NCBI GenBank assembly: GCA_965200965.1
Contig: OZ241744.1
Coordinates: forward strand, 224,001-288,000
DNA length: 64,000 nt
Source: an uncultured Candidatus Binatia bacterium
GTDB taxonomy: Bacteria > Desulfobacterota > Binatia > Bin18
Direction: 5' to 3'
The notes below the pieces were generated by a model that worked only from the letters and a program-made list of their open reading frames with translations, was not told the DNA's origin and did no database searches. Position numbers and translations under genes: made by a program. Shown in pieces: positions 18,380 to 41,555 of this stretch. Position 1 is the first letter of the stretch, and the number at the start of each line of letters is the position of its first letter.

Positions 18380-18404
18380 ACTCTGCTCCTTCCATGTGAG
18401 AGCA

Positions 18405-19867: not shown

Positions 19868-19913
19868 GTCTGCTCTCTCGTCACGCTTGGCCGGAGCAGG
19901 ATATCGGTGGGCG

Positions 19914-19963
19914 GTGCTCCTCTGTGTCTGGCTGTCCTGGCAGATGGGGTGCGTGGGGGGAAG
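19914..19963. repeat. 50-bp direct repeat, copy 2
   Basis: GTGCTCCTCTGTGTCTGGCTGTCCTGGCAGATGGGGTGCGTGGGGGGAAG. Confidence 0.92.
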
Positions 19964-19979
19964 CCGGCGGCTTGAGGGA

Positions 19980-24371: not shown

Positions 24372-25313
24372 CTAACGCCGCGTAATTTTAGGACCGACAT
24401 ATACAACATACAGTGGTCCGTCCGCAGTGACGGGCCACGAAAAATGAATGCGGAGCGGGGGACGACGGGAATTGACCTTCCCGTGCCAAGGGCAGAACAA
24501 AGACTTAAATGTCAGTTCTCTTCGGAAATCATTCTTCTCGGTTTCCGATGAATCAGAAAACCACGCTCTTTCTCCGGTGAAGTATTCTTCGTAGAGCCTA
24601 TGTCCTTCACTGGTGCGATTCCCCTCTGCATCAAAGCACATCTTGAGATGGTCTAGCGTCTGGAGACGGTCGAGTATGTCTTGGGCGGCTTTACGGACGA
24701 AGGGGTGTCCCTGAAGGCGCTCAAAGCAATCTGAGCAAAACACTAGTCTCGTACAGCGAGCCTTTGACACGTCCGCCAACATGGCCCACGACGTGATTGG
24801 AGCGGGGGCGGCATATAAGGCGGCTTCCAGTGCATCGGCGTCCCGATAGTTGGCGACTTTGACCGTCTCCGCTTCTTCGTCGCTCCTCCACCATTTCACC
24901 ACGGCAGGGGAGAAGTCCCACGAAGACGGAATCAGACTCACCAGACTGGTTTTGATCCCGTCCAGGCAGCGATATGCCGCCTCTCCGACAGCGGTGTCAG
25001 TAACGACTGTTCCGTTGCATTCGAGGTATTGATCGGGGCTATGCCTCAGCTGGTCATCGTCCCAGAACGGCCCGCGGCGGGTCCACCACGACATCACGGA
25101 GCGTTGTTCATCTCTGGTCAAGTGCTGAATCGCCCGCGACAGCGGCATTTCTGGGGCTACCTGAACGGTCGAGAGCGTTCTGTGACAATAGAGTTCGCTC
25201 CCATACCGTTGCGCCGTTTTGCGGATAACCATAACCCGTTTAAGCGCAGTGCAGAACTCGTCAAGATCGTGAAACTGTCCGTGGATTGACAGATCGTTGA
25301 CCAGGAGTTCCAC
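24372..25313 (-). CDS. Putative defence effector (Menshen NsnC-like; RelE-like C-terminus inferred)
   Basis: GTG overlaps the stop of the upstream ATPase; C-terminal WHGK...LRIHFSW...LYVVYVG; third gene of the DUF262/DUF3696 triplet. Confidence 0.6.
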   Translation of the reverse strand: MELLVNDLSIHGQFHDLDEFCTALKRVMVIRKTAQRYGSELYCHRTLSTVQVAPEMPLSRAIQHLTRDEQRSVMSWWTRRGPFWDDDQLRHSPDQYLECNGTVVTDTAVGEAAYRCLDGIKTSLVSLIPSSWDFSPAVVKWWRSDEEAETVKVANYRDADALEAALYAAPAPITSWAMLADVSKARCTRLVFCSDCFERLQGHPFVRKAAQDILDRLQTLDHLKMCFDAEGNRTSEGHRLYEEYFTGERAWFSDSSETEKNDFRRELTFKSLFCPWHGKVNSRRPPLRIHFSWPVTADGPLYVVYVGPKITRR

Positions 25314-26446
25314 TATGAATCCCACCCCGCGAAGTAGGTCATATCCTTGTCGAACTGATCGAAGAACCCCTGCGGCCAAGGGTCAATGTTGCCTGTTCTA
25401 TCCAGGAAGGGGCTCACCACTTGCGGGCCATCGTCTTCCCGCGATTGAAAGAAATGAATCGAAACCTGCTCGGCTGGCAACCGGCCCGCTTTGACCGCAC
25501 GCCGAATGCCGTTCAGTATATGGTCGCTGTGGGTTTCCAGAATGACTTGGACCCCCGCTTGGGCGACATCTGCCAAAAACTGTCCCATTAGTGCTTGTCC
25601 GGCAGGATGGAGATGGACCTCCGGGTTTTCGATCAGCAGGATGCCCTCGCGGTTTATCGACAGAGCCGCAACTACGATAGGCAAAACCTGGGTAAGCCCG
25701 AATCCTGTATGGGCAGGACGGTGGAAGTCGGTCTCGTTGGAAGTGCGAATCCCCAGTGTAACAGCGTTCGCGTGAGGGACGGGAGTGAGCTCCAGGCGAC
25801 ATCCGGGGAAGAACATCTGCATCCGCGCCTCCACTTGTCGAAGCAGTCCTCTGTTCGGAACATCCGGTAATGCAAGCGTTTCGCAGATGTGTTCGTCGCG
25901 TTTGGAATACAAGACGCTTACCGCCCGTTCTCCAGACGCTCCCACCACCGGCGTAACCCGCAAATCGTCCATTTTGTACACCTCCCGTGGGCCAAGCCTC
26001 TCCGCTGTGAGATAGGTCAGATTTCTCAGACGCTCGGCTAGAGAAGGTGGCGTATCGGACGGAAGCAGGTAATGAAGCTGTGTCGGAGCATCTGTTTTCT
26101 GGCTGGCCGTGACTACGCGCTTGACGGCCATAGACATTTCTGAACGCTCGCCCATGAAGAGCCATTGATAGGGGGTCTCTCCGTCCACTAAGCCGATCTC
26201 GCAACTCTGCCGACCGTGTACTTGGTCCACGATATCGGATACGGCACCGAGTTGAACGGCCTCGCCGTTAAGGATGAGGCGTAGTGACCATTCGCGGTCA
26301 CGCATTGTCTGGTGCAGCAAGACAACAGCCTGAAGTACCGAAGATTTTCCCGAGGCGTTAGTGCCTGACAACAAGGTCAACGGAGACAAGGGAAGATGAA
26401 GCCGTTCGAAACATTTGAAATGTCGCAAGTCAAGCTGGGTAAGCAC
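25313..26446 (-). CDS. ABC/AAA_21 ATPase with DUF3696 (Menshen NsnB-like)
   Basis: FKCF, GTNASGKS Walker A, GFGLTQVLP signature, IENPEVHLHP, ETHSDH, WPQGFFDQ. Confidence 0.88.
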   Translation of the reverse strand: MLTQLDLRHFKCFERLHLPLSPLTLLSGTNASGKSSVLQAVVLLHQTMRDREWSLRLILNGEAVQLGAVSDIVDQVHGRQSCEIGLVDGETPYQWLFMGERSEMSMAVKRVVTASQKTDAPTQLHYLLPSDTPPSLAERLRNLTYLTAERLGPREVYKMDDLRVTPVVGASGERAVSVLYSKRDEHICETLALPDVPNRGLLRQVEARMQMFFPGCRLELTPVPHANAVTLGIRTSNETDFHRPAHTGFGLTQVLPIVVAALSINREGILLIENPEVHLHPAGQALMGQFLADVAQAGVQVILETHSDHILNGIRRAVKAGRLPAEQVSIHFFQSREDDGPQVVSPFLDRTGNIDPWPQGFFDQFDKDMTYFAGWDS

Positions 26447-27539
26447 CAAACACCCCCTTGAACATCGCAGTGGCGGTGGAAAACCGGGACCGAACTTGCC
26501 GAGAAGAATTTGGGCCATATGTGATGGCTTTTACAAACTCCTCGTGGTCGTCCATCAGCGAGTAGAATGCGTTTCTGAGGGCCTCTGCGTGAGACTTGAC
26601 TATCTCTTCCGGGTATCGTGACAACCCGGTTGACATCACGTCCCAAAGCGAGGCGTTCAGAACACTCCGTTTATCTTGTCTGTTTTGGTGTTTCCTGAAC
26701 GCATGACGGTCGAAGATTTCGTAGTTATTTGCGAGACTTCTCCGAAACTCATCCGACAGGTGCGACAGAGCACTCTGATTCAGAGTGTTCATTTTCTTGA
26801 GCGCTTGCGCGAGAAAATCGTCCATGTCCCCTTTGTATTCTTCGACAGGAAGGAGCTGGAATGCACAAAATCTGTTGACGAATTCACGGTCACGCATCGT
26901 TTGTCTGTTCAGGCTACGGCCTGTAGCTTGCGAGAAAATTTCTGTGGTCGTCTCGGTTTTGAGGAAACGAGTCGCCTGACCCATGTACAGGCTATTACGC
27001 ATTTGCTGCCGGCTAAGGGGAATTCCACCGTTCACACGCTCAAAAATGTCCAAGCGGGCCCGGTCCGGTACCTTGGCATCCATAATGTAGAAGATCAGAT
27101 TGCAATCCTCGATACGGTTTTGGAGCCTGGGCGATAGATCACGAAATTGCTTGTTGTTTAGTTCATTCTTGCTAGGAATTGATAGGCGTAACTCGTCATC
27201 GACGAAGCGCTTGAAGGTGAACAGGCGTTGTAAACCGTCTACGACTACCATTCGCCCTTGGTCGTCCTCTGCCAAATAGAAAACCGGCAGGGGAATACGC
27301 ATCAACACGGACTCAATGAGCTTGATCTGTTTGTCTTCCGGCCAGATAAAGTCTCGTTGAAATTCCGGGTCCATGATGTAAGCGCCTTGCCCAATTCTTC
27401 GCATAACATCGTAAATTGTGCGATTTTCCTGACGGATTAACACCGTGTCTATCGGATAATCGGAGTCCTCCGGCGAAACGTCATCCTTATCGCCAAGACC
27501 CTCGGGTTCCTCTGGAGTAATATCGGGTTGTTCAGTCAT
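26430..27539 (-). CDS. DUF262 (ParB/GmrS-like) protein (Menshen NsnA-like)
   Basis: PEFQRDFIW, LIESVLMRIPLP, VDGLQRL, IFERVNGG. Confidence 0.9.
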   Translation of the reverse strand: MTEQPDITPEEPEGLGDKDDVSPEDSDYPIDTVLIRQENRTIYDVMRRIGQGAYIMDPEFQRDFIWPEDKQIKLIESVLMRIPLPVFYLAEDDQGRMVVVDGLQRLFTFKRFVDDELRLSIPSKNELNNKQFRDLSPRLQNRIEDCNLIFYIMDAKVPDRARLDIFERVNGGIPLSRQQMRNSLYMGQATRFLKTETTTEIFSQATGRSLNRQTMRDREFVNRFCAFQLLPVEEYKGDMDDFLAQALKKMNTLNQSALSHLSDEFRRSLANNYEIFDRHAFRKHQNRQDKRSVLNASLWDVMSTGLSRYPEEIVKSHAEALRNAFYSLMDDHEEFVKAITYGPNSSRQVRSRFSTATAMFKGVFGAYPA

Positions 27540-27592: not shown

Positions 27593-28069
27593 CTACCCCT
27601 GCCACCGATTCCTCTTCTCCGTCATAGCAGCTTCCATATGATGGGCTTTGCGTAAGGCTGGCAGTATCGGTCCCGGGTTGGCCACGATCGCGCCACCCGG
27701 GGTTGCAGGCGACCCCGGCAGCCCGCTGCCAGCCTCCTCACGCAGGCGCTCAATCAGGCTGACCGCCTGTGCGGTGCGACCGTTGGCCAGCAGGGCCAGG
27801 GCGAGCAAACGTAAGCCGCGCGGGGTGGCCTGAAGCTGACAGGCAGCCTCGGCCCAGGCCAGGGCTTCGGCAGCCCGGTCTCCGTCACACAGGGCTTGGC
27901 GTGCCTGTTCACGGAACTGCCAGGCTCGTGCCGCCAAGCGCATGAGCGGGTCCAGATCGGTCCCACACCGGGCGCAGACAGCCGTCCCGCGCCACGCCGC
28001 CCGGCAGGTCGGGCAGTGCGCCTCTGGCAGTGATGAACGCTGAACAGGTGAGGGCGTGGGGTCTGACAT
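27593..28069 (-). CDS. Zinc-ribbon plus TPR-like small protein
   Basis: CPTC..CARCGTDL followed by Ala/Leu-rich helical repeats. Confidence 0.72.
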   Translation of the reverse strand: MSDPTPSPVQRSSLPEAHCPTCRAAWRGTAVCARCGTDLDPLMRLAARAWQFREQARQALCDGDRAAEALAWAEAACQLQATPRGLRLLALALLANGRTAQAVSLIERLREEAGSGLPGSPATPGGAIVANPGPILPALRKAHHMEAAMTEKRNRWQG

Positions 28070-28076
28070 GACGGGG

Positions 28077-29945
28077 CTAGGCTTCTTCAACATAAAACAC
28101 CAGATCGGTGAGCTGGACGGTGGCCATGTGGAGGTGATTCCAATCCTGCATCCTCAGCGCCTCCTCAATCTGTTGGTGCAGCCCGAGCGCCTCGTGTCGG
28201 TCTTCGGGCGTCATGCTGTCCAGCAGCCGACGGCTGCGCTCTAACAGGCGGCCGGCGGCAAACACCTGTTGGCGCAGCGCTTGGTTTTCGTGGTCCTGGG
28301 CGGTTTCTGGAAACGGGAACGATGGTCTTGTTTGGCCTTGGTGGTTATTATCGTTCGCCTGTGTCGCCGGCTCAGTCTGGCCGGAAGGCGTCCCCTCCTG
28401 CTCGAAGGCTTCGACCGCAGCGGCGCGGTCTTGGGCTAAGACCGCGTGCATACGCTGGCGGGCCCGGGCCAGCTCTTCGGCCGACATGGCGGTCGTCGCA
28501 CCCTCAATCGTAATGTGCCGGGCCAAGCCGGTGCGCTTCTCAATCGCGGTGACTTTCAGAATCCCGTCCAGATCAAGCTCCATACGACACAGCACCTCAT
28601 TGCCGGCCGGCACGCGGGACAGCCCTTCCATGCAGAAGCGACCGACCAAAATGTTGTTTAAGGCGTCCGGGTCGTCGCCCTGATAGACCGACACCTGCCA
28701 GTCAGTTTGCTCGTCAAGCATCGTGTGATAGGAGTCGGTGCGGCTGACCGGCAGGGGAGTGTTGCGCCGGATAATCGGGTGGTAGCAGTGTTCATACGGC
28801 CGGCCGTCAAGCACACCGAGGTGCGACGGACCAAAAGAGTAGGGCGAGATATCGACCAGAATCCGATCTATATTGTGGCCGGCGAGGCGGGCACCTAACA
28901 CACCAGCCCCAAAGGCGACACACAGCTCGGGCTGGAGGTCCTGGTGGGGGACGAGGCCGGTCTTGTCCTCGATCAGCTGGGCTGCCAGCGGCGTGCGGCT
29001 CGCGCCACCGACGAGCAGCACCTCGTCAATCTGCTCTGGCTGCTTCCCCGCGTCGCTCAGCGCCCGGTACACGCTGTCCAGGGTGGTTTCCAGCAGAGGC
29101 TGGATCAGCCCTTCGTACTCCGCCCGGGAAATTTCCACATCAAGGTGGACCGGGACGCCGTTGCGTTCGGCCAGGTGCTCTTCCCGAATGTAGGCGTAGG
29201 GCGCAAAGCTCAGGCGTTGTTTGGCCTCCTCAACCGTATACAACAGGCGGGTCATGGCGGTGGGGTCGGCTCGCAGGTCTGGGCCGCCCGACTCGACAAA
29301 CCGGTCGTGGACCCAGTCCAACAAGCGCTGGTCAAAATCATCGCCACCCAGATGGTTGTTGCCGTGGGTGGCGATGACCTCGGTGATCTCGTCCTGGACC
29401 TGAACCAGAGACACATCAAACGTCCCGCCGCCCAAGTCATAAATCAGGACCGTGCGGTCTCCCCGCCGGTCGGTGCCATAGGCCAGGGCTGCGGCGGTCG
29501 GTTCATTCAGGAGGCGGACGACATCGAGACCGGCGATGTGGCCGGCGTCGCGGGTGGCCTGGCGTTGAGCGTCGGAGAAATAGGCCGGCACGGTGATAAC
29601 CGCCCGGGAGAGTGACCGGCCCAGGACTGTCTCGGCGCGTGTTTTGAGGCCGTGCAGGATCAGGGCTGAGATTTCCGGCGGGGTATAGCTGTGCTGGCCC
29701 AGTACGAGTAGTTGGGTGGAGCCCATCAGGCGTTTGACCGATTTCACCGTCCGGTCTGGATAGAGGGGGTATTGATTCCGGGCCGGGCTGCCGACCAGGA
29801 CCCGGTTGTCTGGGGCGAGGCCGACGACTGAGGGCATGATCCGCTCGCCATTGACGGCCAACACCTGGACCTTGTCGCCGACAATGGCCGCGACCTCGGA
29901 GTTGGTCGTGCCCAGGTCAATGCCGAGGATAATGTCGTGTGTCAT
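28077..29945 (-). CDS. Specialised Hsp70-family chaperone (not housekeeping DnaK)
   Basis: GIDLGTTNS, TVPAYF, EPTAAA, YDLGGGTFD, LVGGASRTP, linker ILVDI, substrate-binding domain. Confidence 0.93.
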   Translation of the reverse strand: MTHDIILGIDLGTTNSEVAAIVGDKVQVLAVNGERIMPSVVGLAPDNRVLVGSPARNQYPLYPDRTVKSVKRLMGSTQLLVLGQHSYTPPEISALILHGLKTRAETVLGRSLSRAVITVPAYFSDAQRQATRDAGHIAGLDVVRLLNEPTAAALAYGTDRRGDRTVLIYDLGGGTFDVSLVQVQDEITEVIATHGNNHLGGDDFDQRLLDWVHDRFVESGGPDLRADPTAMTRLLYTVEEAKQRLSFAPYAYIREEHLAERNGVPVHLDVEISRAEYEGLIQPLLETTLDSVYRALSDAGKQPEQIDEVLLVGGASRTPLAAQLIEDKTGLVPHQDLQPELCVAFGAGVLGARLAGHNIDRILVDISPYSFGPSHLGVLDGRPYEHCYHPIIRRNTPLPVSRTDSYHTMLDEQTDWQVSVYQGDDPDALNNILVGRFCMEGLSRVPAGNEVLCRMELDLDGILKVTAIEKRTGLARHITIEGATTAMSAEELARARQRMHAVLAQDRAAAVEAFEQEGTPSGQTEPATQANDNNHQGQTRPSFPFPETAQDHENQALRQQVFAAGRLLERSRRLLDSMTPEDRHEALGLHQQIEEALRMQDWNHLHMATVQLTDLVFYVEEA

Positions 29946-30675
29946 AGTCCTTGTCAGCGTCTTTCTCCGCGGTTTCTCCTGTCCCACTCCTCGCGACCTG
30001 GACCTCGGCAAAACGCAGGACTTGGCCGTTACAGGTGTAGCCGGGACGGATGACTGTGAGCACCGTGCCGGAGGCTGCGGCGGTAGTGTGACTGACCGCG
30101 GCCACCCGCATCAGATTAGGATTGAACGCCGCGTTGAGACACCTGATCTCGTACACATCCAGCCGTCGCAGCAGATCGTCGAGCCGTTCCTGGGCCAGCT
30201 GTGTGCCTTTGACGAGGGCTTCAAGCACCGGACGTTGGCCGAGCCGGGCGCGCAGCCCGCGGAGGCTGGCGAGCCGCCGCTCGGCCTCGGCCAGATTGCG
30301 GCTCAGGTGGTCGCGGACCTCAAGCAATTCGGAGACGAGTTCGGTACGCGCCTCGCGCCGTGCCCGGCCCAGTTGGCGGACCAAGTCCTGGCCGGCGGCC
30401 GCCGGCTCGCCGTGGGTGGTCGGCCCGGTCAGTCTGTCCAGGGCTTGGCCGAGTTCGGCGTGTAGCCGGTTGGTAGCCCGGCCTTGCAGTTGGGTTTCGC
30501 GGGTCAGCGCGCTTAACTGTCCGAGCACGGAAAACAGGTCGGGGGCTGGATCAGGCGAGGCCATACTGTCGGGGGCCAAGCCCGGGGGGGCTGGCTCTGC
30601 CCGGTCGAGCTCGTCAAGCCAGGCGTGAACGGTTTCAATGAGGCGCTGGCGACGGTCTGGAGCGCATCCGCTCAT
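29917..30675 (-). CDS. GrpE-like nucleotide exchange factor
   Basis: Coiled coil, then FNPNLM..V...GTVLTVIRPGY..NGQVLRFAEVQV; ATGA overlap with the upstream gene. Confidence 0.82.
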   Translation of the reverse strand: MSGCAPDRRQRLIETVHAWLDELDRAEPAPPGLAPDSMASPDPAPDLFSVLGQLSALTRETQLQGRATNRLHAELGQALDRLTGPTTHGEPAAAGQDLVRQLGRARREARTELVSELLEVRDHLSRNLAEAERRLASLRGLRARLGQRPVLEALVKGTQLAQERLDDLLRRLDVYEIRCLNAAFNPNLMRVAAVSHTTAAASGTVLTVIRPGYTCNGQVLRFAEVQVARSGTGETAEKDADKDYDTRHYPRH

Positions 30676-33128
30676 CGTCCTGACTCCCGCAGGATATGCA
30701 GCCACGGCCCCGGGCCGACGTGCCGGCGTTCGTCCGGCATGAGAGCAAGCAGGTCCTCAACCCGGGCCAGTGGAGGCGGACCGAACAGGCGAGAGGCGAG
30801 CCGTTTGTCGGCATCCTGAATCGCCTCATACGCCTCCCGAATCTGGGCAAAGCCCCGCGGGTCTCGGTCCGGCGGAGAGCGTCTGAGCGCACGGAGATAG
30901 GCTGCCCGAACGGTCTCATCGTCGGCGCTGTCTTCAATATCGAGAACGGTAAAAGGGCTGAGCAGAGGCGTACTTTCCAGCGCAAGCGGGGAGAAAGCCC
31001 AAGGCAGGGCCTGGTGTGGCGCGGCCGGCTTGTGGGTGAACATCTGGCCGGGTCGGTGGGCCTGCAAGCACGGCGGCCTCGGGTGGCGGCGTTCGACCTC
31101 AAGCGTCAGGTCTATTTGCGCTTGGCTGGGCGGCCGCTTATCGTGCCGGCCGCCGGGTGCCAAGGCACCCAGGGCCAGTGCGGCCTGGCCGGCCACCTCC
31201 CCGTCCTGGGCTTGGCTGGCCAGCTCACGCGCCGCCCGCAGGCAGTTACGCGCGCGGCTTTGGTGAGGCTGGGCGAGCGAACCGCTCAGGCTTTGGCCGC
31301 GGGTCAGCAGAAAATGGCGCAGGTGAGGTTCTGGGGAGTCCAGCCCGTGACCGGCAGCGATATAGGTCAGGGCTGGCCGGCCGATGGCCAAGCCGCCGTA
31401 ACACAGGGCGTGCAGCTGAGCCACTGAGGCCCTATCCAGGTTTTTTTCAACTTGGCTGACAAAGCTGTCGGGTACGGCTAGTCGACGCTCCAACGCGCCA
31501 AACAGGGCGCAGACCCGCGCCAGCCCCTCGACCGCCTGTGGGGGCGAGACCCTGGCTGAGCACTGGGGCCGAGACACTTGGGTAATCTCACTCACCGCGG
31601 CGAGGATCAGGGCGTGCAGGGCCGGATTATTCACCGCGCCGGCTAGGGTTCGGGCCAGCGCTTGGGCGGCAGCGGTATCAGCCCTCTTGTGGGCCAGCGC
31701 CCAGTTGAGGGCCAGCAGATAGGCTCTGATATCGCCGTCGTTGGCCCGTGGCTCTTGGGCCAAGCGTTCCAGATCGGCTAGGGCCAGCCCGGATTTAGCG
31801 TCCTGAATCCGCCGCTCGGCGCTGGATAACAGGAGCCGAAACCGGCTGTGCTGCAGCTGGGGGTGGAGGCGATTGAGGGCTTCCGCTTTAGCCACAAAAC
31901 CGAGCGCTTTGCGGAGCGCGCCCCGCTTTTCCGCGGCCGCAATCAGGTAGAGCAGGGGCTCAAGGTCGTGCGGATAGGCGGCGTGCCAGACCTCGGCTTC
32001 GGCCTCGGCCCGCCTGCCGTCGCGCCGCTCGTAGTAGGCGAGCAGGGCACGAAAGACGCACGCTCCGAGTTGGGGTGAAACACCCCCGACGGCCTGACGC
32101 GCACGGTCAAGCAGGCCGGCCCGATCGAAGACGGCCGGCAGTTCGCCGGCGCGGATCACCCGCCGGAGTTGCTGTTCAGAAGCCAGACCGAGATCGTCCA
32201 GCATCTGGGGCCGATCGGACGGGAACAGCTCGCTCATACGCAGCAGAATATGAACGGTTTCTGGAGCGCTGGGCAACAGCCGACCTGCGGCGTGGGCCGC
32301 GCTGAGGTAGGTGTCCCACACCAGCAGCGCTCTGTCCCACTGGCTGTGCTCAAGGCTGAGGGCGGCAAGGCGCAGCATCTCGGGGTCAATGTTGTGGCGG
32401 CTGATGAGGTCTATGAGGCCGGCTGGCAGCCCCTCATTCCGCTGCCAGTGGTGGAACACCGTCCTGATAAATGTGTATCTGTGGTCGGTAGGAAGGGTGG
32501 CCAGCCACGGCAGGAGGTGGTGCAGGGCGCTCAAGGCTTGGTCTTCGTTGTGAGCGCTCAGCGCTTGGCCGAGCTGTCTGAGTTGACTGCGTCGGGCATG
32601 ATTGCCGGCGCTGACTCGCTCCAACAGGGCCGCTCGATGAGCACCGGGGTCGGGAACTCCTGCCTCAGCCGGGAACTCCGTTTTCCCCAGCAAGGCGCGC
32701 AGGATAGGGACCAAACGGCCCGGACCGGAATCGGCCGGTATACGCGCCAGATTGGCTTCGGCCAGCTGATCGGCGCGTCGATAGAACGCGTCAAGCGCGC
32801 GGATGAGTAACTTCCAGGGTGCCAGTGGGGATTGGCGCGGAATAGTGTCCAGGCAGGCCAGGGTGCCTGTCGGCAGCGGAGCGGTGGTGACAGCCCTGAA
32901 CATCTGCCGAACGGTCCCTGCCTGGCGTCTCAGCGGGTGCTCAGCCGGCAGGTCGGCTAACTGGCCCGGGTCGGTCAGCCGGTATTGGATACGGGCTTCC
33001 AGTTCACGGCGGCGGTCTGCCCGGGCGCTTGCCATCTGGCTGATCAGTGTGCTGAGGTCACGACTCGTGCGCCGGGCGAGCGGGGTCACAGGCTCACCAC
33101 AGCCAGTGCGTCTTTTTCGTTTGGCCAT
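30672..33128 (-). CDS. Large helical/TPR-like protein with C-terminal atypical J-domain
   Basis: Long Ala/Leu/Arg-rich helical body; C-terminal PFTVLDI...VRAAYLRALRRSPPDRDP..F..IREAYE. Confidence 0.72.
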   Translation of the reverse strand: MAKRKRRTGCGEPVTPLARRTSRDLSTLISQMASARADRRRELEARIQYRLTDPGQLADLPAEHPLRRQAGTVRQMFRAVTTAPLPTGTLACLDTIPRQSPLAPWKLLIRALDAFYRRADQLAEANLARIPADSGPGRLVPILRALLGKTEFPAEAGVPDPGAHRAALLERVSAGNHARRSQLRQLGQALSAHNEDQALSALHHLLPWLATLPTDHRYTFIRTVFHHWQRNEGLPAGLIDLISRHNIDPEMLRLAALSLEHSQWDRALLVWDTYLSAAHAAGRLLPSAPETVHILLRMSELFPSDRPQMLDDLGLASEQQLRRVIRAGELPAVFDRAGLLDRARQAVGGVSPQLGACVFRALLAYYERRDGRRAEAEAEVWHAAYPHDLEPLLYLIAAAEKRGALRKALGFVAKAEALNRLHPQLQHSRFRLLLSSAERRIQDAKSGLALADLERLAQEPRANDGDIRAYLLALNWALAHKRADTAAAQALARTLAGAVNNPALHALILAAVSEITQVSRPQCSARVSPPQAVEGLARVCALFGALERRLAVPDSFVSQVEKNLDRASVAQLHALCYGGLAIGRPALTYIAAGHGLDSPEPHLRHFLLTRGQSLSGSLAQPHQSRARNCLRAARELASQAQDGEVAGQAALALGALAPGGRHDKRPPSQAQIDLTLEVERRHPRPPCLQAHRPGQMFTHKPAAPHQALPWAFSPLALESTPLLSPFTVLDIEDSADDETVRAAYLRALRRSPPDRDPRGFAQIREAYEAIQDADKRLASRLFGPPPLARVEDLLALMPDERRHVGPGPWLHILRESGR

Positions 33129-33342: not shown

Positions 33343-34476
33343 CTATAATCTGCGCTGAGACGAAACCGCCTGGCGGGCGGCGGAGAGCGTGGCTACGACA
33401 TAGCCCTGCTGATCCTCGGTCAGTTCTGGATAGATGGGCAGGGCCAGAGATTCCCGAGCGGCCGCCTCAGCCTGTGGAAAATCACCTTCTCGATAGCCCA
33501 GCCGGGCAAAACACGCCTGGAGATGGAGCGGCCGTGGGTAATACACCGCGCTTGCTACCCCGTGGTGGTGTAAGAAGTGGCGCACCCGGTCGCGCTGCGG
33601 CAGCCGAATCGTAAATTGATGATAGGTATGACCGGGCACGTCCCGGGGCGTGGTGAGCCAGTCCAGGAGTCCCGCGGCCTCAAACAGCCGCCGATACCGG
33701 GCGGCATGGGCCCGCCGCTTGGCCGTCCAGGCCGCCACATAGGGCAGCTTCACCCGCAGGACCGCCGCCTGCAAGGCGTCCAGCCGGAAATTTCCACCAA
33801 GCACGGTGTAGTCGTCTTTCTGAGTGCTGCCGTGGACGCGCAGGCTGCGCAGGCTGTCGGCCAGCCGTCTATCATCGGTGACAACCATACCGCCGTCGCC
33901 AAAGGCACCTAGATTTTTGCTCGGAAAAAACGAAAAACAGCCCATTGCAGTATCCGTTCCAACGGGCCGGCCGTGTGGGTCGGTGGCACCGATGGCCTGA
34001 GCAGCGTCCTCGATAATTGGAATGTTGCGCGCGGCTGCCAGCCGCGCCATATCTTTTAGATCGACACACCGACCGTATAAGTGGACCGGGATGATCGCTT
34101 TTGTCCTGGCGCTGAGTGTAGCCGGGACCGCGCTGGGGTCGATATTGAAGGTCTGGGGGTCAATATCGACAAAGACCGGGCGGGCACCGAGCCGAGCGAT
34201 GACGCCGGCGGTGGCAAAAAACGAATACGGTGTTGTCACCACCTCGTCGCCCACTCTGACATCGAGCGCCATCAGGCCGGCCAGCAGGGCGTCGGTACCC
34301 GAAGACACGCCAACCCCAAAGCGGACCCCGCACAGGCCGGCTACATCCGCCTCCAGCGCCTCTACCTCTGGACCAAGGATAAAATGCTGCGCCTCACATA
34401 CCCGGTCAATCGCTGCCTGGATTTCAGACGCGATACCCGCGTACTGGGCTTTGAGGTCTACGAGTGGAATCTTCAC
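33343..34476 (-). CDS. DegT/DnrJ/EryC1/StrS-family sugar aminotransferase
   Basis: SSGTDAL, PVHLYG, EDAAQA, SFFPSKNLG (PLP lysine), GDGG, RLDALQAA, SLALP. Confidence 0.95.
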   Translation of the reverse strand: MKIPLVDLKAQYAGIASEIQAAIDRVCEAQHFILGPEVEALEADVAGLCGVRFGVGVSSGTDALLAGLMALDVRVGDEVVTTPYSFFATAGVIARLGARPVFVDIDPQTFNIDPSAVPATLSARTKAIIPVHLYGRCVDLKDMARLAAARNIPIIEDAAQAIGATDPHGRPVGTDTAMGCFSFFPSKNLGAFGDGGMVVTDDRRLADSLRSLRVHGSTQKDDYTVLGGNFRLDALQAAVLRVKLPYVAAWTAKRRAHAARYRRLFEAAGLLDWLTTPRDVPGHTYHQFTIRLPQRDRVRHFLHHHGVASAVYYPRPLHLQACFARLGYREGDFPQAEAAARESLALPIYPELTEDQQGYVVATLSAARQAVSSQRRL

Positions 34477-34509
34477 GGGGCGCTGCCGATCTTTTCTTCA
34501 GATAGGGGC

Positions 34510-35796
34510 TCAGGCTGGCGAGCTGACTGTGATCCTCTGTCGAAGCCGGCCTATCTCGCGCCAGAGCCTTTCAAAATCCCGGAGTGTGATTGGGCGGTAA
34601 TGGGCGAGTGTATTCCGAATCTCGCGTGTCAATTCCGCTGGCTGTAGTAGGGGTCGTTCCCTACGAAGAGAGCCACAGTTCCTGAAGAGGTGGACGAGAT
34701 GGCCCCATTGGCAGGCGAATGGACTGTCTCGGACTGCATCAGCTTCCTCCGCAATGTCTGGCGGACACCACCGCAACGGCCAGTCTTCCCCATACTGCTG
34801 ACTGAGATGGCGACAGATAGAAATCCTTATATCGTCAATCAAAGGAAGCGCGAGATTTGTTTGTCCACGCCACAAGCGGTGCTGCAAGTCTTCAGCGCGT
34901 CCCAACAGGGCCAGAGCGGCGGCGTGCAGCTCGGGGCCATATTCCGGCGTCCAATTGAGAACGCCGTGCGCCCACAATTGATGCCAACGGGACGGGGGGA
35001 GGTGAGGAGAATGTATGCCGGTGAGAGTGGGCAGAAAATCTTCAATGTCCCACGCTTGCAAGATGTCTGGTGTCCAGCCACGCTGTTCCCCGAATGCCTG
35101 CAAAAGAGGAAGAAGCTGCTCGCAGTCAAGGTGGAGACAGTCCCATAGATATTCAGCTAGAGCGATGTCGTTTCCCGTGATAGCCGGGACGAGATGTTCC
35201 CGCCAGCGGTGGAGAGGGGAGCATTGGCTGTCCGCGTTTTCCGAACGGCACAGTATCTGTATTTCCAAAGCTGAGGGAAGTCCCCACCAGTAATGTACCG
35301 AGAGATGGAGGTCGCTTTCAGGAACTCGGTCGGGGAGGGCAGGTCCCGGGGTGAAGATACTTAGGGCTGGAGGGTCAAAATTGCGATCAGAGAGACTTTT
35401 ACTGGTCTGTGTCCAGTCAAGGACAAACTTCACCCAAGTCTTTCGGTCAGGTTCGGGCAACTCTTCAAATCCTTTCAGATGGATTATCTGGGGCAAGTCC
35501 CCGGAAATCATCAGGTTTGCAACACTTCGGGGGCTTGAGGCTTCTGGCCATTGGACATCAAGCGCTTCGCCAAGAGCTATGACCGGACGCTCCTTGCTTG
35601 GCAGCTCCGGGAGCACAATTTCTTCAACATAGAAATCTTGCCGGAACAAGCGCCCTTCCAATGCGGGCCATAGGTCTATGGGTTCTGCCCCTGTTGGAAA
35701 GAGCACCAAGTGACTGCGCCTTGTAGAGAGGTCGTCAAACAGGGCATCCACAAACCGCTGAACGCTTGGTGCGTGCATAAGCGTATCTGTCAACAT
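34510..35796 (-). CDS. Hypothetical partner of the STAND-like ATPase, with C-terminal HEPN-like motif
   Basis: Starts 4 bp after the ATPase stop; IRNTLAH matches the R-x4-H pattern near the C-terminus. Confidence 0.65.
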   Translation of the reverse strand: MLTDTLMHAPSVQRFVDALFDDLSTRRSHLVLFPTGAEPIDLWPALEGRLFRQDFYVEEIVLPELPSKERPVIALGEALDVQWPEASSPRSVANLMISGDLPQIIHLKGFEELPEPDRKTWVKFVLDWTQTSKSLSDRNFDPPALSIFTPGPALPDRVPESDLHLSVHYWWGLPSALEIQILCRSENADSQCSPLHRWREHLVPAITGNDIALAEYLWDCLHLDCEQLLPLLQAFGEQRGWTPDILQAWDIEDFLPTLTGIHSPHLPPSRWHQLWAHGVLNWTPEYGPELHAAALALLGRAEDLQHRLWRGQTNLALPLIDDIRISICRHLSQQYGEDWPLRWCPPDIAEEADAVRDSPFACQWGHLVHLFRNCGSLRRERPLLQPAELTREIRNTLAHYRPITLRDFERLWREIGRLRQRITVSSPA

Positions 35797-35800
35797 GCGC

Positions 35801-38800
35801 TCAGAGGAAACGGAGGAGAGTTGGTTCGACAGAGAGCTGGCCGTCCTGCCGCTCAATGCAGCCGAGCCGTTGCAGGTATTCGATTGCAGTATCGCATTTG
35901 TCGGATGAGAGAACGGCAAGGCCATCGCTGTCTTGAATGTCTTGTGGATCAATCAACTCAACCGGAACTTCCGGCCCGTTTTTTTCGATGAATTTGAGAA
36001 TCCGACGCGCAGTGTCGTGAAGTCCCAAAGAGTTCCTGAATGTCCGAGAAAGTTCCGAAGACGGCTCTTCGAGCTCTTCGCTAATGGTCTCCGCAGCAGG
36101 GCGAGGATCGTCCTGGGTGCCGCAGCGCTCGAACAGAACATCTAAAAGATATGGCCAGCCGCCGGTGTTCTCCAAGACGGCGCGACACACATCGTCTGAG
36201 TCCATTTTCCTCTGTTGGTCTAAGCGTTGACGCAGGCCTGAGAGATTCCAGCGTCGGGGAAAGGTGACCACATCGACCTGATCCTCAATATCCCGGCGCT
36301 GCTGGCCTGGCAGAGAAAGCCAGTTCCAGGCCGCCCCTGGGTCAAAGATGAAGAGGAGGCGCAGCCAGCGTTTTTTGCTGCGCTGGTGAGCTTGACAGGC
36401 TTTATGAGCGGCTCTTACGCTCTCGAACAGAGCGGTGTTCGTTCCTCGAAAAGAACCGTATAAGATCAACCGCTCATGGTTTTTGTGGGAGGCTAAATAT
36501 TCCCTGATCCATTTTTCCAGCCTGGCGCTATCGAGCTCTGTTGGAGGGATTTCTTGACAGACCCCCTTAGCCTCCGGCAGCTCGGCCGGGATAAAGCTAC
36601 GGAAGGCCGCCTCGATATGAGCTAGCCCGAGAGTTTCAGAGGCAAAGACTAGACCAACACCAAAGCGAGCCGCGTTCAAACTGCGTCCCTGAGCGTAGGT
36701 TAAGGGACTATAATCTCGTCCCTGATTGTCGAGCAGGGCGTGGTGGCTATCGGCGTCAAACCGCTGCTCTGGTTCCTTCTCCGACAGGGCTAACAAGTGG
36801 TCTTCAATATCGGTTTCCGTACCAACGAGGCGCACGAGATTCGGACTGCGTAACCGATAGGAACCAGTGGCGTATCGGACCAGAACGCCTAACCCTGTCA
36901 TCTCATCCAAAAGACCTCTGAGTTGGTCGGAATCGACCTTGTTGAACCCTTTGGGCCACCAGTCCCGCACCAGTGCTGACAGGTCTGCCGGAGTGTAGGC
37001 TTGAGCATAGCCGTCCGATTGTTCAGTTTGGTCAAGAATCATAGCCCAAACTATTGCCTGATAGCGTGAATCAAGGGCCAGAGTCCATTCGAACCGTTCT
37101 CGGATTCTATCGCGCACCTGCGGTAGCAGATAGACTCGCTCCACATTGCTTTGGGCAATAGGATAGGGCGGGGACATACCCTGTTTCCGTAAGCGTTTGA
37201 GGAGTTCATCGCAGAAGAGTTGGATGAGGCCCGGATGATAGTTGGTGTAGGACAAAATCCGTAGGACCGTTCCAGGGGTGTCAAACCGATAGCCAAGAAC
37301 TTCAAGTGGCTCACGAATAAGCTGTTGAGCGACGGTCGGTTCCAAAGGGCCGACTAGCAGTGGGGTGCCGAAGTGAGCAAGGGGCTGATTGGGGATGCCT
37401 TGGAAGCGTTGGACGTTGTGCAGACCAGCAAAAACTACCTTGAAACGCCTGTCCGTGGCCTGCATAAGAGCTCGCAGACCTTCCACAACCTGGAAGCCAC
37501 CCTTGGCGTCAGCATCCAGAAAATTATCGGCTTCATCAAAGAGCATCAGGACCAGCCGTTCGGCCTTTGCTGCTATCGCCTCCCGAGCATGACGCTGCAC
37601 TTCTTCCGGTTTGTCCGTGGTAATTGCGCGTGGCAAAAGCTTGAGTTCCTTCAAGCCGTCCCGAACCTGTCCCCATAGGGTTTCTGGGGCAACTGAGTCC
37701 CCGATCAGCTTGATGTCTTCAACCCAGGCGTACCGCTGTCGTTCAGGATGGTGAAATTCACGGCGGACATGCTGCAAAAGGGCTGATTTGCCGAGTTGTC
37801 TGCCACCGTAAACAAGGCAGCTTCCAGAAGGCCGTTGCAGTTCCCGCACCATTGGACTACGGCCAAAAAACATTTCTGGTGGCACATTTCCGGCCTGGAA
37901 GGGTGTGTAGGGATTGACGGCGGAGAAGGGCAGCGTACACCGTAGAAAAACAGGCAAACGGGCATCGCGTTCTTGGGCCAGAAACACGAGCAGTATTTCG
38001 TCTAGGACAGCAACAGTGAGGTCCTCACTGCGAACTCTCCGGCTATAATCGCGTCGCTGACGCTCGGTCAAGCGACCCAGATAGAAAACAAGGACACTGT
38101 GGGTATCGAGGCGCAAGTCTCGCAACCAGGCACTTATTGTGTCAGCACCTGGCCTTTCCCATACACATACAATATCGTAGCGTCCGCTGGTTTGTGAGCC
38201 AAATTGAGGGATGGGTTTGGTCAGACCGCTGGCCGACATCCGAGCTTGAATATGCACCCATTCCGCGCCTCGTTGGATGTCGTCAAGAGATGGATCAGGT
38301 TCGAGACGAAAGCCCAGATATCGAAGCAAAACGGGAAGATTTTCCGAAATTCTTGGACCTCTGACTCTTCCTTGTTTCAAATCGGTCCAAGCTTTAATGG
38401 CTTGGATTGCCTCGTCACGGCGTCTTTCTGGCGTCTCACCAAATTTGATGCCCGCGATAGAGGAGCCACGCTTGATGTTTCTGCCAACCAGCCGCAGATT
38501 CATCCCTTGCCCTTGCAATGAGTCTACAAGCTGTGGCACAGCCTCAAGAAACTCCTGCAACGCATCACGACTCGACGGAGGAGAAAACAACTCTTCGTCA
38601 AGCTCTCCGCCCCCCTCAACAACTTCTGTGAGATGCGCCACACATTCCTCAGCAACCCTGGTCTCCCGACGGTCCAGACTGGATTGAACAAATTTCCCGA
38701 TATCTTCCAACTTGGCCGAATCAATCCGGTTGGCGAGGCGTGGCTTGAGCTCATCCCATTCTTTCTGGAATTCTTTCAGCCGCACATGACCAGCTTCTTC

Positions 38801-39061
38801 CAACTGCTTATTGATCCGTTTGAGTTGGTCGTGCTTTGGTCCGAAGTGTGGAATTGTATTGGCCTTCAGCGCTTCAATGATCCCTTCATACTCGGATCGC
38901 TCTCCCGCACTTATTCCGTCAACCTCAGCGTGTTCAATTGCGGCTCTGGTCTCTGATATAGCTGTCCGCAGCCCTTCCTGTGAGCCTTCTAATGCCTCCT
39001 GATATGCCTGACGTTTTACGGAATGATCGGGTTCATCAAAGGCGTCCAGCATTGTTTCCAC
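35801..39061 (-). CDS. STAND-like P-loop ATPase, 3' part of a large frameshifted gene
   Basis: NPY...MFFGR, GGRQLGKS Walker A, LMLFDEAD Walker B, TNYHPGLIQ; frame stays open upstream to about 39320. Confidence 0.85.
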   Translation of the reverse strand: METMLDAFDEPDHSVKRQAYQEALEGSQEGLRTAISETRAAIEHAEVDGISAGERSEYEGIIEALKANTIPHFGPKHDQLKRINKQLEEAGHVRLKEFQKEWDELKPRLANRIDSAKLEDIGKFVQSSLDRRETRVAEECVAHLTEVVEGGGELDEELFSPPSSRDALQEFLEAVPQLVDSLQGQGMNLRLVGRNIKRGSSIAGIKFGETPERRRDEAIQAIKAWTDLKQGRVRGPRISENLPVLLRYLGFRLEPDPSLDDIQRGAEWVHIQARMSASGLTKPIPQFGSQTSGRYDIVCVWERPGADTISAWLRDLRLDTHSVLVFYLGRLTERQRRDYSRRVRSEDLTVAVLDEILLVFLAQERDARLPVFLRCTLPFSAVNPYTPFQAGNVPPEMFFGRSPMVRELQRPSGSCLVYGGRQLGKSALLQHVRREFHHPERQRYAWVEDIKLIGDSVAPETLWGQVRDGLKELKLLPRAITTDKPEEVQRHAREAIAAKAERLVLMLFDEADNFLDADAKGGFQVVEGLRALMQATDRRFKVVFAGLHNVQRFQGIPNQPLAHFGTPLLVGPLEPTVAQQLIREPLEVLGYRFDTPGTVLRILSYTNYHPGLIQLFCDELLKRLRKQGMSPPYPIAQSNVERVYLLPQVRDRIRERFEWTLALDSRYQAIVWAMILDQTEQSDGYAQAYTPADLSALVRDWWPKGFNKVDSDQLRGLLDEMTGLGVLVRYATGSYRLRSPNLVRLVGTETDIEDHLLALSEKEPEQRFDADSHHALLDNQGRDYSPLTYAQGRSLNAARFGVGLVFASETLGLAHIEAAFRSFIPAELPEAKGVCQEIPPTELDSARLEKWIREYLASHKNHERLILYGSFRGTNTALFESVRAAHKACQAHQRSKKRWLRLLFIFDPGAAWNWLSLPGQQRRDIEDQVDVVTFPRRWNLSGLRQRLDQQRKMDSDDVCRAVLENTGGWPYLLDVLFERCGTQDDPRPAAETISEELEEPSSELSRTFRNSLGLHDTARRILKFIEKNGPEVPVELIDPQDIQDSDGLAVLSSDKCDTAIEYLQRLGCIERQDGQLSVEPTLLRFL

Positions 39062-39242
39062 AAAGCGATAGTCTTGTGCACCCAGCCAACTATCGAAAGC
39101 TGCCTGAAGGGAATGTTGCTCGGCGATTGCTTTGCAGAGCGTCGAAGCAACCCGGGGCAGGGCTGTGTGAGTGGGCTGTCCGCTGTCTTCCCGGGGAATT
39201 TTCGGGAGCCATAGCAGGAGCCTGCTGAGAGCGGTTGGGAGG

Positions 39243-41354
39243 CTATCGGTATTTCCATCGAACCACTCCTGCTGGCGAGTCGAAGGCTGAACAGGCTGTT
39301 CCGGTAAGCGTGTTTTGAAGTTGTTGGACCGAGCGGAGCAAACACTGGGCCGCAGCGCGAATCGGCTGAGGCTGGACTCGACTACTCAATTCTTGAAGGG
39401 CTTGGATGATTTCGGGGAGGGAACCCTGAATCTGCGAACGGACCTCGTTCGTCATCTGCGAGAAAGAGTCTTCTCCACTCTGAGGTTCCTGTTCGCGCTC
39501 AACGCATTCACACCAATGTCCGGCTAGGTCGCAGGCTTCTTGGACATTATGAACGATTTGCTTGAGCGCCGTTCCATCAATTCTTTGGGTTCCTCTAGCT
39601 ACCTTGTGGATATAGGTGGTGACATAATCATCTTTCTCCCACTGTTGCAGATTCTTGCGTACCTCATTGAGCCTCCTTTGATCGTTTTCTGTCACTGGGA
39701 AAAGAAAGGCATGCATAGCTCCGCCTGGAGCTGTCATGCGTCGCCATACATTGGAGGCTCGCTGGTATCCTGTCCGCCGCAGAGGTGCCTGTTCTAGCCA
39801 TCTTTTGGCTGCCTGCGTGGCTTCTTGGAGGGATGCTCTGTGCTGTTCTATATCGGCGACACCGAAGAGATCAGCCAGTCGTATAGACCTCCCCCAATTT
39901 GTGAACATTTTGATAGCGTCGACGACTCCGGCCAGATTCGGGCATATCTTAGGGACGCTGAGCCATGTCTGAATCCCCGTGCTCGGCGCGAGGAGACTGG
40001 CCCGCAAGGCTGCTGACAGGCCCAGAAGTTTCTGAGGCTCATCCTCAAATGGCCGGGCGTCCCTGATAATGTCTCTGAGATCATCAACAAAGGCTTGCGA
40101 ATTGGGCAAGAGTTGGCGAGCCGCCTGTACCGCGGCAATTAACTCGGGGGGGACGGGGCAGGGCTGGCCCAGCACCGGCCACGCCCGCGCCAGCCAATAG
40201 GCAGTGGGCAGTGTATCCTCGGCAATCAAGGTCCATAGGAGTTCTGTCCAATTTTTCGGGTCAGGAAAAGTCTGGAGTTGGCGGGCAATGGCTTGAATGT
40301 CGGGATTTTCGGTCCCGGGCAGGAAGATATCCGAAGGGGATATCCCTGATTTGTTGCTCTGGTCAGGATTGGGGTCGGATGGATGGAAGTTGTCAGGAGG
40401 TGATTCCTCTAGCCTGTTCTCGTCCATCTGAGACGAAGTTGCCCCGTTTTTTCCTTCTTCTTCGCGCCTCTCCTCTTGACCGGGTTCTGGCCTTTCCTCT
40501 CTCTCTGCCGGCGGCTCAGAAGAAGCGGATTCGGGAGCAAGGGAAGGCTCGAGCTTATCCGCTTGCAGAACTGTGGGGGTTCTCTCTGTTCCAGATGAAG
40601 GGGCAGCGGCTTCTTGGGGCAAAACTTGCTCAGGCTGTGGTAGCGGAACGGGCTTGTCGGACGTTTCTGAGCGAGATTTCGAGGGAGTGCCGGCGGCTCC
40701 GCCTCGGCCTGGTGTTCCTGTCCGTTGTGTGGCTGGGGAAGGCTGTTCGGAGGAGGGGATGAACAACTCGGTGAGGCGTTCATGGATTTTCGCAATCTCC
40801 TCCTCCAATTCCCCGGCCTTTTGGTCACGCAAATGCTTCTTAGCAAGCGTAGCAGGGCGAGGCTGTCGATCATACTTGTAGTACTCAAGCAGTAAGGAGC
40901 GGAACTGCTCCGTGCTTTGCATGGCGGTGGTTATGTGGGTCGTGGGACACCTCTCTGCCGCCCACTGAGAGACATCTCGCATGTCAAAAAACCCCAACAT
41001 TTCTCTTGCTTGGGGGGTGGTGAGATCGCCCAGCGCTTTTTGGAGGCGTCCCCGCTGGTCCCGACGCTCCTGTTGATTCTTCTCGTATAACTGCTGGAGT
41101 GTCTCCAGAAATTGAGGGATAGCTTCCCAGTCGGGAGCTGCCAGGGGTAATTCCTGAACCGTCTTGAGCAAGCCATTCCAGTCTATGCGCGGTTGGGGCA
41201 TCACTGTTTGTGGTTGCTCTTGAGATGCAGTTGCGGACGCCTGAGACGGGACTGAGCTTGATGGGGCTTTCATCGCCTCCCCTTTCTCTCTTCCAAGCCA
41301 AGAGAGCAGAGAGACTACACTTTTGTTCAGTGGTTCACAATACTTATGCCGCAT
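39243..41354 (-). CDS. Helical/low-complexity 5' part of the same large ATPase gene
   Basis: Coiled coils and a Pro/Ser/Glu-rich linker; overlaps the open upstream extension of the ATPase frame. Confidence 0.7.
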   Translation of the reverse strand: MRHKYCEPLNKSVVSLLSWLGREKGEAMKAPSSSVPSQASATASQEQPQTVMPQPRIDWNGLLKTVQELPLAAPDWEAIPQFLETLQQLYEKNQQERRDQRGRLQKALGDLTTPQAREMLGFFDMRDVSQWAAERCPTTHITTAMQSTEQFRSLLLEYYKYDRQPRPATLAKKHLRDQKAGELEEEIAKIHERLTELFIPSSEQPSPATQRTGTPGRGGAAGTPSKSRSETSDKPVPLPQPEQVLPQEAAAPSSGTERTPTVLQADKLEPSLAPESASSEPPAEREERPEPGQEERREEEGKNGATSSQMDENRLEESPPDNFHPSDPNPDQSNKSGISPSDIFLPGTENPDIQAIARQLQTFPDPKNWTELLWTLIAEDTLPTAYWLARAWPVLGQPCPVPPELIAAVQAARQLLPNSQAFVDDLRDIIRDARPFEDEPQKLLGLSAALRASLLAPSTGIQTWLSVPKICPNLAGVVDAIKMFTNWGRSIRLADLFGVADIEQHRASLQEATQAAKRWLEQAPLRRTGYQRASNVWRRMTAPGGAMHAFLFPVTENDQRRLNEVRKNLQQWEKDDYVTTYIHKVARGTQRIDGTALKQIVHNVQEACDLAGHWCECVEREQEPQSGEDSFSQMTNEVRSQIQGSLPEIIQALQELSSRVQPQPIRAAAQCLLRSVQQLQNTLTGTACSAFDSPAGVVRWKYR

Positions 41355-41555
41355 CGCTCATGTCAACTGCGTTCGCCGGCTGACCCAAGCGTAGCATTGA
41401 AAAGAGCGTGGGCATCTCATTGCTTTTCCAGGGTAAAATGCAAGAACGCAACACGCGTTCTCTGACGGCGTTTCTCTACAAGGGACAAGAAGGTCAGAGC
41501 CAATCCGCAAGCTCGTGTGAGCCAAAGAAAGCGTTACGGTGGCGATGTTGCGGGT

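Follow-up and report, generated by a model that had tools for sequence, protein, structure and literature searches.

An apparently undescribed accessory Hsp70 gene set, with a J protein lacking the HPD motif, in several bacterial phyla

Introduction

On the minus strand of a 64,000-nucleotide stretch of contig OZ241744.1 (assembly GCA_965200965.1, positions 224,001 to 288,000; referred to here as the window) lies a compact group of four chaperone genes, which we call the cassette. They encode a TPR scaffold fused to a J-like domain, a GrpE-like nucleotide exchange factor, a specialised Hsp70 and a zinc-ribbon protein with short TPRs (Table 1). Comparison of homologous loci shows that the cassette is a conserved, apparently undescribed accessory Hsp70 set found in several bacterial phyla, and we found no published description of it in a search that lacked many subscription papers and all supplements. 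The host is probably a sponge-associated member of the Binatia, since sponge metagenomes are among the datasets carrying the locus DNA and homologues bear labels such as Deltaproteobacteria and Candidatus Binatia.

A sequence-only reading of the window, made earlier, had taken the four genes for a complete private chaperone cycle inside a defence island, in which a large helical protein would recruit a specific client to the Hsp70 as part of a possible immunity or stress module.

Results

Gene organisation of the cassette

Open reading frame (ORF) and Pfam calls confirm four co-oriented, tightly packed or overlapping genes, as that reading had it. An ATGA overlap joins the TPR-J ORF to grpE, a 29-nt overlap joins grpE to hsp70, and hsp70 abuts the zinc-ribbon gene. 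The claim of a complete chaperone cycle holds in so far as an Hsp70, a GrpE and a J protein are all present, but the J motif is PPD rather than HPD and thus we infer the full cycle. Promoter and terminator counts around the cassette were at chance level, no CIRCE-like repeat was seen at the cassette, and there was no RNA dataset among the sequencing runs carrying the locus DNA.

Table 1. Features of the cassette and of its immediate surroundings, in window coordinates.
Feature	Position	Strand	Remarks
TPR-J fusion ORF	33128-30672	minus	818 aa; J domain at C-terminus
TPR/alpha-solenoid scaffold part	30960..33128	minus	residues 1-722 of the fused protein
J-like domain part, PPD for HPD, in frame with scaffold	30672..30959	minus	Pfam DnaJ E 1.4e-5, below cut-off
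Dedicated GrpE-like nucleotide exchange factor	29917..30675	minus	Pfam GrpE E 3.2e-21
Specialised Hsp70, 622 aa	28077..29945	minus	Pfam HSP70 E 3.3e-131
Zinc-ribbon and short TPR protein	27593..28069 (alternative start 28093)	minus	CxxC-CxxC ribbon, weak TPR matches
DegT/DnrJ aminotransferase, resident neighbour	33343..34476	minus	Pfam E 1e-109
Menshen NsnA-NsnB-NsnC, low-GC insertion, outside cassette	24372..27539	minus	PADLOC E 6e-114, 1e-104, 2e-113
Low-GC insertion with split STAND-like ATPase gene and 480-aa gene, outside cassette	34478..41552	minus	GC3 0.54-0.58

Distribution and conservation

An Hsp70 motif scan of species-representative genomes gave at least 120 matches, and flanks were taken for 80. 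These 80 loci comprise 16 ordinary clostridial dnaK operons, two unrelated or cut loci and 62 loci of cassette type. Scaffold, J, GrpE, Hsp70 and zinc-ribbon-TPR genes follow one another in this order in 44 of the 62, across six lineages (43 were counted by script and one is a duplicate of a relative's locus); the others are cut by contig ends (10), are cyanobacterial and without the zinc gene (5) or are broken or rearranged (3). Carriers include members of the window's own family, alpha-, beta- and gammaproteobacteria, Acidobacteria, Planctomycetota, Desulfobacterota and Cyanobacteria. Cyanobacterial plasmids also carry cassettes, which were found through the Hsp70 and whose annotation goes no further than TPR, DnaJ-domain, GrpE and Hsp70 family proteins. 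A scaffold search in plasmids, an Hsp70 motif search in viral contigs and a J search in phage records all returned no match.

All eight genomes of the window's genus have the cassette, with an Hsp70 orthologue in 7/7 of the other members. Within the family its occurrence follows genus boundaries, the J protein being found in 14 of 55 family genomes and in 0/28 of genus g8, and 25 of 121 Nostocaceae genomes have the cassette. Values of dN/dS between three congener pairs range from 0.15 to 0.33 for all five parts (0.29-0.31 for the scaffold), and by this measure the cassette is under purifying selection in the genus. These values also led us to reject, within the genus, a hypervariable scaffold shaped by positive selection.

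Some loci depart from the common arrangement. Four from Nostocales (L032, L054, L092 and L097) have unrelated genes between grpE and hsp70, up to ~6 kb in L092, and operon continuity is therefore not obligatory there. In a gammaproteobacterial cassette (L050) a single frame of 796 aa encodes both GrpE and Hsp70, which is either a true fusion or an assembly error. A cassette of proteobacterial/Desulfobulbales type (L073) was met in a bin with the title Promethearchaeota, on a contig of 5.7 kb, through transfer or bin contamination.

A specialised Hsp70

The cassette Hsp70 scores below the cut-offs of DnaK models (481 against 648 bits for the DnaK equivalog, and 472 against 823 bits), and the genome carries a separate grpE-dnaK-dnaJ cluster and hscA/hscB elsewhere. 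A DnaK-like match of at least 54% identity is present in 48 of 50 other cassette genomes; the remaining two (2.0 and 2.5 Mb) have only a 40-43% match. In trees of 84 and 40 sequences (FastTree; SH-aLRT 99) the cassette Hsp70s form a branch separate from DnaK and HscA, a divergent actinomycete row (L041) being ignored in one tree and excluded from the other. Escherichia coli HscC falls on the cassette side of the 99% branch, as a single sequence on a long, unsure branch, and a search for further HscC-like sequences in 58 genomes returned two cassette Hsp70s only. The prediction of a specialised Hsp70 distinct from the housekeeping dnaK is thus upheld by model cut-offs, by the second dnaK and by the trees, since the protein neither groups with DnaK nor is the only copy in its genome.

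Catalytic, allosteric and linker residues are retained in 52-53 of 53 Hsp70s (D8, K70, E171, D194, T199, D201, P143, F146, R151, L391 and D393), and the cassette proteins show no variation at L391, E217 and V218, which contact J. Loop L1,2 carries an 8-aa insertion in 52/53 (HscC has +4), and the loop bearing the GrpE signature is of DnaK length in 52/53. All 53 lack DnaK residues 76-101 within the nucleotide-binding domain (NBD); since 6 of 22 DnaKs have the same deletion, it is not diagnostic for HscC. The substrate-binding domain (SBD) is 30% identical to that of DnaK and 35% to that of HscC, and in the window's lineage (8/53) it has Trp at the position of DnaK V436, where, as described in PMC8215388, a larger residue lowers the peptide affinity of DnaK 40-fold. 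The protein ends in a C-terminal helix with the motif L-x-D-L-x-F-Y.

GrpE and the zinc-ribbon-TPR protein

The cassette GrpE falls under every NCBIfam GrpE cut-off, and a second, canonical grpE adjoins dnaK. In the zinc-ribbon-TPR protein C5, C8, C18 and C21 are invariant in an alignment of 56 orthologues, and the window copy is extended by ~45 aa at its C-terminus, on the side of the Menshen insertion. AlphaFold2 (AF2) predicts a ribbon and a short TPR with a pLDDT of 94.9. Fold matches are generic TPRs (Z up to 11.5), and the top sequence matches are the TPRs of Hop, Tom70, Hip and CHIP (E 1e-3 to 2e-2). EEVD-type binding was considered and rejected, the matches being weak and generic and the clamp residues not conserved; likewise a ToxA_N match (Pfam E 1.5e-3) is below cut-off and was set aside as a helical chance match. 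Seven cyanobacterial loci without the zinc gene are also without the Hsp70 motif L-x-D-L-x-F-Y, and both are present in 64 loci. When the Hsp70 SBD/lid and the zinc protein were predicted as a complex, the score was 0.02 (mark 0.32), which counts neither for nor against an interaction.

The scaffold and its local fusion to J

AF2 models the scaffold entirely as helices (mean pLDDT 81.5) and its top Foldseek matches are TPR solenoids (among them Ctr9, TTC7B and Naa15), with low TM scores. TPR_19 was detected in 19 of 43 scaffold orthologues, and no enzyme fold was found in the modelled scaffold. A large helical protein suited to client recruitment, as had been suggested, is consistent with the TPR solenoid predicted by these three approaches. 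Profile-profile comparison joins three scaffold groups across phyla as orthologues (E 3e-38 and 1e-10), with a weak direct match between those that lie furthest apart (E 0.002). The window scaffold is without a ~100-aa N-terminal repeat unit and a C-terminal tail that are present in relatives outside its clade, and most of the genus has lost both. All 65 loci with a J protein have a co-oriented gene directly upstream of it, longer than 450 aa in 62, and the ends of the scaffolds are basic.

Relatives have five separate genes, with J as a free ~97-aa protein. The scaffold stop codon, TAG in genomes G004 and G006, is TGG here, and the J start codon ATG is CTG; the fused form occurs in 2/121 scaffold sequences, the window's own (P0001) and a 98%-identical one (P0005). 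The junction is free of indels and stops in runs X6, X7 and X11, from three studies of which one is possibly the source study, and an assembly error was ruled out by these clean contigs. A search for longer fused J forms found none, yet the same search missed P0005. The TPR-J fusion described earlier is therefore genuine and intact here, but it is restricted to this species.

A J protein without HPD

HPD is missing from all 65 J proteins taken from the loci: PPD, PPE or SPE stands in its place in 50 and PAH in 15, six of these motifs having been read by eye. A census of 150 J proteins (138 PPD/PPE) is partly circular because its query was a PPD protein, and we rely on the locus-based one. Residues expected to face the Hsp70 are strongly conserved (A-Y, P, F and I-R-x-A-Y). 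The J acid changes together with Hsp70 R167, PAH being paired with Q167 in 15/15 cases and an acidic motif with R/K in 47/47. The D35-R167 contact is described as a key J-Hsp70 salt bridge with a known suppressor pairing (PMC13012618), and such co-change would be the expected outcome if J still docks canonically.

Genomic context and the defence question

GC3 of the cassette is 0.72-0.77, like that of resident genes, and its codon use is host-like, as against 0.54-0.58 for the STAND-like block and 0.57-0.61 for Menshen. Genome G004 shows an empty site on each side, with ~230 nt from tamB to degT upstream and ~700 nt from the zinc gene to a monooxygenase downstream. Of the five congeners with enough flanking sequence, four lack the STAND-like genes and Menshen next to the cassette and G007 alone has the inserts, and DegT adjoins the cassette only in G000, G007 and G004. 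Read from composition and gene order, Menshen and the STAND-like block are two distinct insertions of low GC that flank a resident block, and the defence context is accidental. Because of the low-GC flanks and the empty sites in G004, the cassette does not lie in one defence island, contrary to the earlier proposal. The placement given for it stands in part: PADLOC identifies Menshen NsnABC on one side, but DegT and the 480-aa gene intervene on the upstream side. The STAND 'pair' shows weak STAND/AAA matches only in its 1086-aa ORF, all below cut-off, and is probably one split gene, since it forms a single 1705-codon frame in the closest relative, G007.

Several observations concern these insertions themselves. 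The STAND-like pair (35801-41354, minus strand) is probably one gene of ~1,900 aa; the G007 frame has a later frameshift, and strain X11 has several indels. It has weak nSTAND matches and none in PADLOC, and may thus be a defence ATPase in decay that is not yet listed, and the 480-aa gene behind it has a weak HEPN_Swt1 match (E 0.009). In G007, Menshen (L005:8632-9419) has a 1.4-kb internal deletion that removes the end of nsnA and most of nsnB, the cassette being whole.

The flanks of related cassettes were sampled at 65 non-redundant loci, up to the third gene to either side, which yielded 294 proteins. Pfam annotation of 288 of these proteins gave mostly metabolic and housekeeping functions, with some toxin-antitoxin, insertion sequence (IS) and NACHT genes. 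The 121 proteins that were suspect or had no annotation were compared with PADLOC at E 1e-25, with 15 matches in 11 loci, a lower bound because 173 proteins were unscanned, and single matches are not system calls. Controls were 20 regions at round coordinates in cassette-bearing genomes (113 proteins, PADLOC only), with six matches in five regions. Defence genes were not enriched in this comparison with its small control, whether counted by locus (11/65 against 5/20, Fisher p 0.51) or by protein (15/294 against 6/113, p 1.0). Nor did a sixth gene recur among 643 clustered flank proteins, and PADLOC at E 0.01 assigned none of the four cassette proteins to a family. Enrichment in defence islands is thus not seen, an outcome that, as far as linkage goes, the earlier reading had itself named as refuting the suggested immunity link; a weak effect, or a weak tendency toward variable regions, may exist.

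Among individual neighbourhoods, two Thiocapsa loci (L045:2432-8405 and L080) have, downstream of the cassette and in its orientation, a gene of 610-675 aa and then an SNF2 helicase of 1383 aa, with DpdE/ZorD-like PADLOC matches, and in G023 (L013:7660-9516) a SIR2-domain protein (PADLOC Aga_SIR2, E 3e-31) lies three genes upstream. Elsewhere in the window, positions 47736-64000 (minus strand) hold at least five tandem paralogous membrane proteins of ~780-850 aa, also repeated in G007, the first with a PMT_2 glycosyltransferase-like match (E 3e-6). Positions 17233-19993, with hydantoinase genes on one side and a carbonic anhydrase-like gene on the other, contain low-GC unannotated genes (108, 152, 297 and 240 aa), and the 108-aa ORF has short tandem repeats of QQHRH type.

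Discussion

Among known systems HscC-DjlB/DjlC of E. coli (ybeQ-ybeR-djlB-ybeT-ybeU-djlC-hscC), which has a Cd2+/UV resistance phenotype, resembles the cassette in its specialised Hsp70, in private J partners with an altered HPD and in repeat proteins at the locus; the NBD deletion and the L1,2 insertion are also common to both Hsp70s, and HscC falls on the cassette side of the tree, though on a long, unsure branch. However, the cassette has a linked grpE and an exchange loop of DnaK length, whereas PMC8215388 describes the HscC system as being without a GrpE partner. For the loop the contrast leans on that review, as HscC shows a 6-residue gap in one alignment and a length of 20 in another. 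The J partners differ too, with ~97 aa and PPD, PPE or PAH in the cassette against 475-483 aa and HPE in DjlB/DjlC, as do the Hsp70 length (622 aa here, 556 in HscC), the gene order and the SBD. Compared in this way, the cassette fails membership of the HscC system on GrpE and on partner type.

The canonical DnaK-DnaJ-GrpE system likewise has Hsp70, J and GrpE in one operon and the same conserved catalytic and linker residues, but the cassette Hsp70 forms a separate clade below DnaK cut-offs and coexists with a true dnaK, and the cassette is without a class A/B DnaJ and has two extra TPR genes. HscA-HscB shares the character of a client-specific bacterial Hsp70 and, with the cassette of this lineage, a large side chain at V436 (Trp here, Met in HscA; PMC8215388), but HscA needs no GrpE, sits with isc genes and belongs to a separate clade, and this genome has its own hscA/hscB. 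The fused protein also recalls P58(IPK)/DNAJC3, a TPR solenoid followed by a C-terminal J (Foldseek rank 34, E 1.8e-3), although the TPR likeness is generic (TM 0.14) with no sequence homology shown, the J here has no HPD and the fusion is recent. Conserved neighbourhoods with Hsp70, GrpE and J/TPR fusions are described for GAP1-N2 conflict systems, which PMC7159879 places mainly in Actinobacteria and Firmicutes; no GTPase, GAP1-N2 or FNIII gene recurs beside the cassette (643 flank proteins clustered, 288 Pfam-scanned). By analogy, the cassette may work like the specialised Hsp70 systems of HscC/HscA type.

We consider it likely, with reasonable rather than high confidence, that this accessory Hsp70 set is an insulated, client-specific remodelling machine that is separate from DnaK and is not cargo of a defence insertion. 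The TPR scaffold would bind one native client complex and, with J, would form a split TPR-J co-chaperone that passes this one client to the private Hsp70. The small J would act beside the C-terminus of the scaffold, which may be why a fusion is tolerated here. It would dock on the cognate Hsp70 by way of the acid-to-R167 contact, which is retained, and trigger ATP hydrolysis without His33, and we propose that this keeps it from cross-talk with DnaK. The private GrpE would then reset the nucleotide state, and the zinc-ribbon-TPR protein would be an accessory factor, possibly for the C-terminal helix of the Hsp70. DnaK is known to dismantle phage and plasmid replication initiator complexes. That the client here is a nucleic-acid-bound protein complex, for example on the DNA sliding clamp, is the weakest step of the scheme and we hold it to be doubtful. 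The one lead toward it lies in the scaffold ends: they are basic, and 9 of 62 (four lineages), against 1 of 643 flanking proteins (p 2e-9), carry the tail pattern Q-x-[DENS]-L-F, which fits the clamp motif QL(S/D)LF (PMC9690074). A still bolder version, which we regard as unlikely, would add a fourth type to the bacterial Hsp70 machines: by an orthogonal J-Hsp70 code a His-less J would activate its own Hsp70 only, and a clamp-tailed scaffold would bring that Hsp70 to DNA-bound complexes for dismantling.

Several points weigh against this scheme. The tail pattern is missing from the window scaffold and from 53 of the 62; it was picked after the tails had been inspected, and the related sequences are non-independent. 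Two co-variations, that of the J motif with R167 and the joint loss of the zinc gene and the Hsp70 C-terminal motif at seven loci, each map to one cyanobacterial clade and therefore amount to one event each. The genus has lost the most conserved N-terminal unit of the scaffold, and the function of this copy may be reduced. Finally, the J protein may be inactive, because in simulations H33A retains binding and blocks stimulation (PMC13012618) and a 2026 review holds His33 to be essential with HPE as the sole tolerated change (PMC13254874).

This last point leads to a pseudo-J, structural or inhibitory like Pam16 or the type IV J-domain proteins, which would leave an Hsp70 that works unstimulated by J, as a regulated holdase or ATP switch. 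The missing HPD in 65/65 and the literature on His33 suit it, but the conserved Hsp70-facing side of J, the invariant L391, E217 and V218 and the co-variation of R167 with the J acid do not, and we give it a slim chance. The scaffold could instead itself be the client, so that Hsp70, J and GrpE fold or activate a ~800-aa solenoid that does the cellular job. Its constant position directly upstream of J agrees with this, and a fusion of J in cis to its client would also be tolerated. TPR solenoids, however, usually fold without a dedicated Hsp70. In addition, TPR plus J is a known co-chaperone layout, with a DnaJ-TPR class described in PMC10410713 and P58IPK among the fold matches here, and we find this reading improbable. 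If the set were a general stress chaperone, redundant with DnaK and serving as its backup, all three canonical parts and the intact ATPase residues would be accounted for; with an SBD so unlike that of DnaK, Trp at V436, a J without a client-binding domain and two obligately linked, unrelated TPR genes, this reading is very hard to sustain.

The reading closest to the earlier proposal is a chaperone-based anti-phage or conflict module, in which the scaffold would sense a phage protein or control a neighbouring defence complex through the Hsp70. Both here and in G007 the cassette does lie between Menshen and the STAND-like gene. Its occurrence in Nostocaceae is patchy, cyanobacterial plasmids carry it, several copies are broken or interrupted, and toxin-antitoxin pairs, IS elements or NACHT genes are present in some of the flanks. 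DnaJ reportedly mediates phage sensing by an NLR-like protein in one study. Hsp70 and GrpE are also described together in GAP1-N2 conflict loci (PMC7159879). Against this, the PADLOC rate in the flanks is no higher than in controls and no partner gene recurs, the flanking insertions are separate and of low GC with empty sites in G004, the intact cassette of G007 stands beside a partly deleted Menshen, and the cassette is fixed across the genus, with a constrained scaffold and no PADLOC match to its genes. A defence role thus seems to us improbable, though somewhat less so than a pseudo-J, and the insulated remodelling machine remains our preferred reading.

Bacterial Hsp70 paralogues other than HscA have been termed 'dark matter' (PMC13580251), and HPD-less J domains, whether accident or selected, are called enigmatic in PMC13254874; a large survey of J-domain proteins took HPD-less sequences out of its main set (PMC10410713). 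The cassette offers a conserved HPD-less J encoded beside its likely cognate Hsp70 and an exchange factor, so that the HPD question could be reduced to a simple ATPase assay. The window contributes a natural scaffold-J fusion and an example of a defence context that is accidental, and if an orthogonal J-Hsp70 code proves to be true, this fusion would be its ready-made minimal version.

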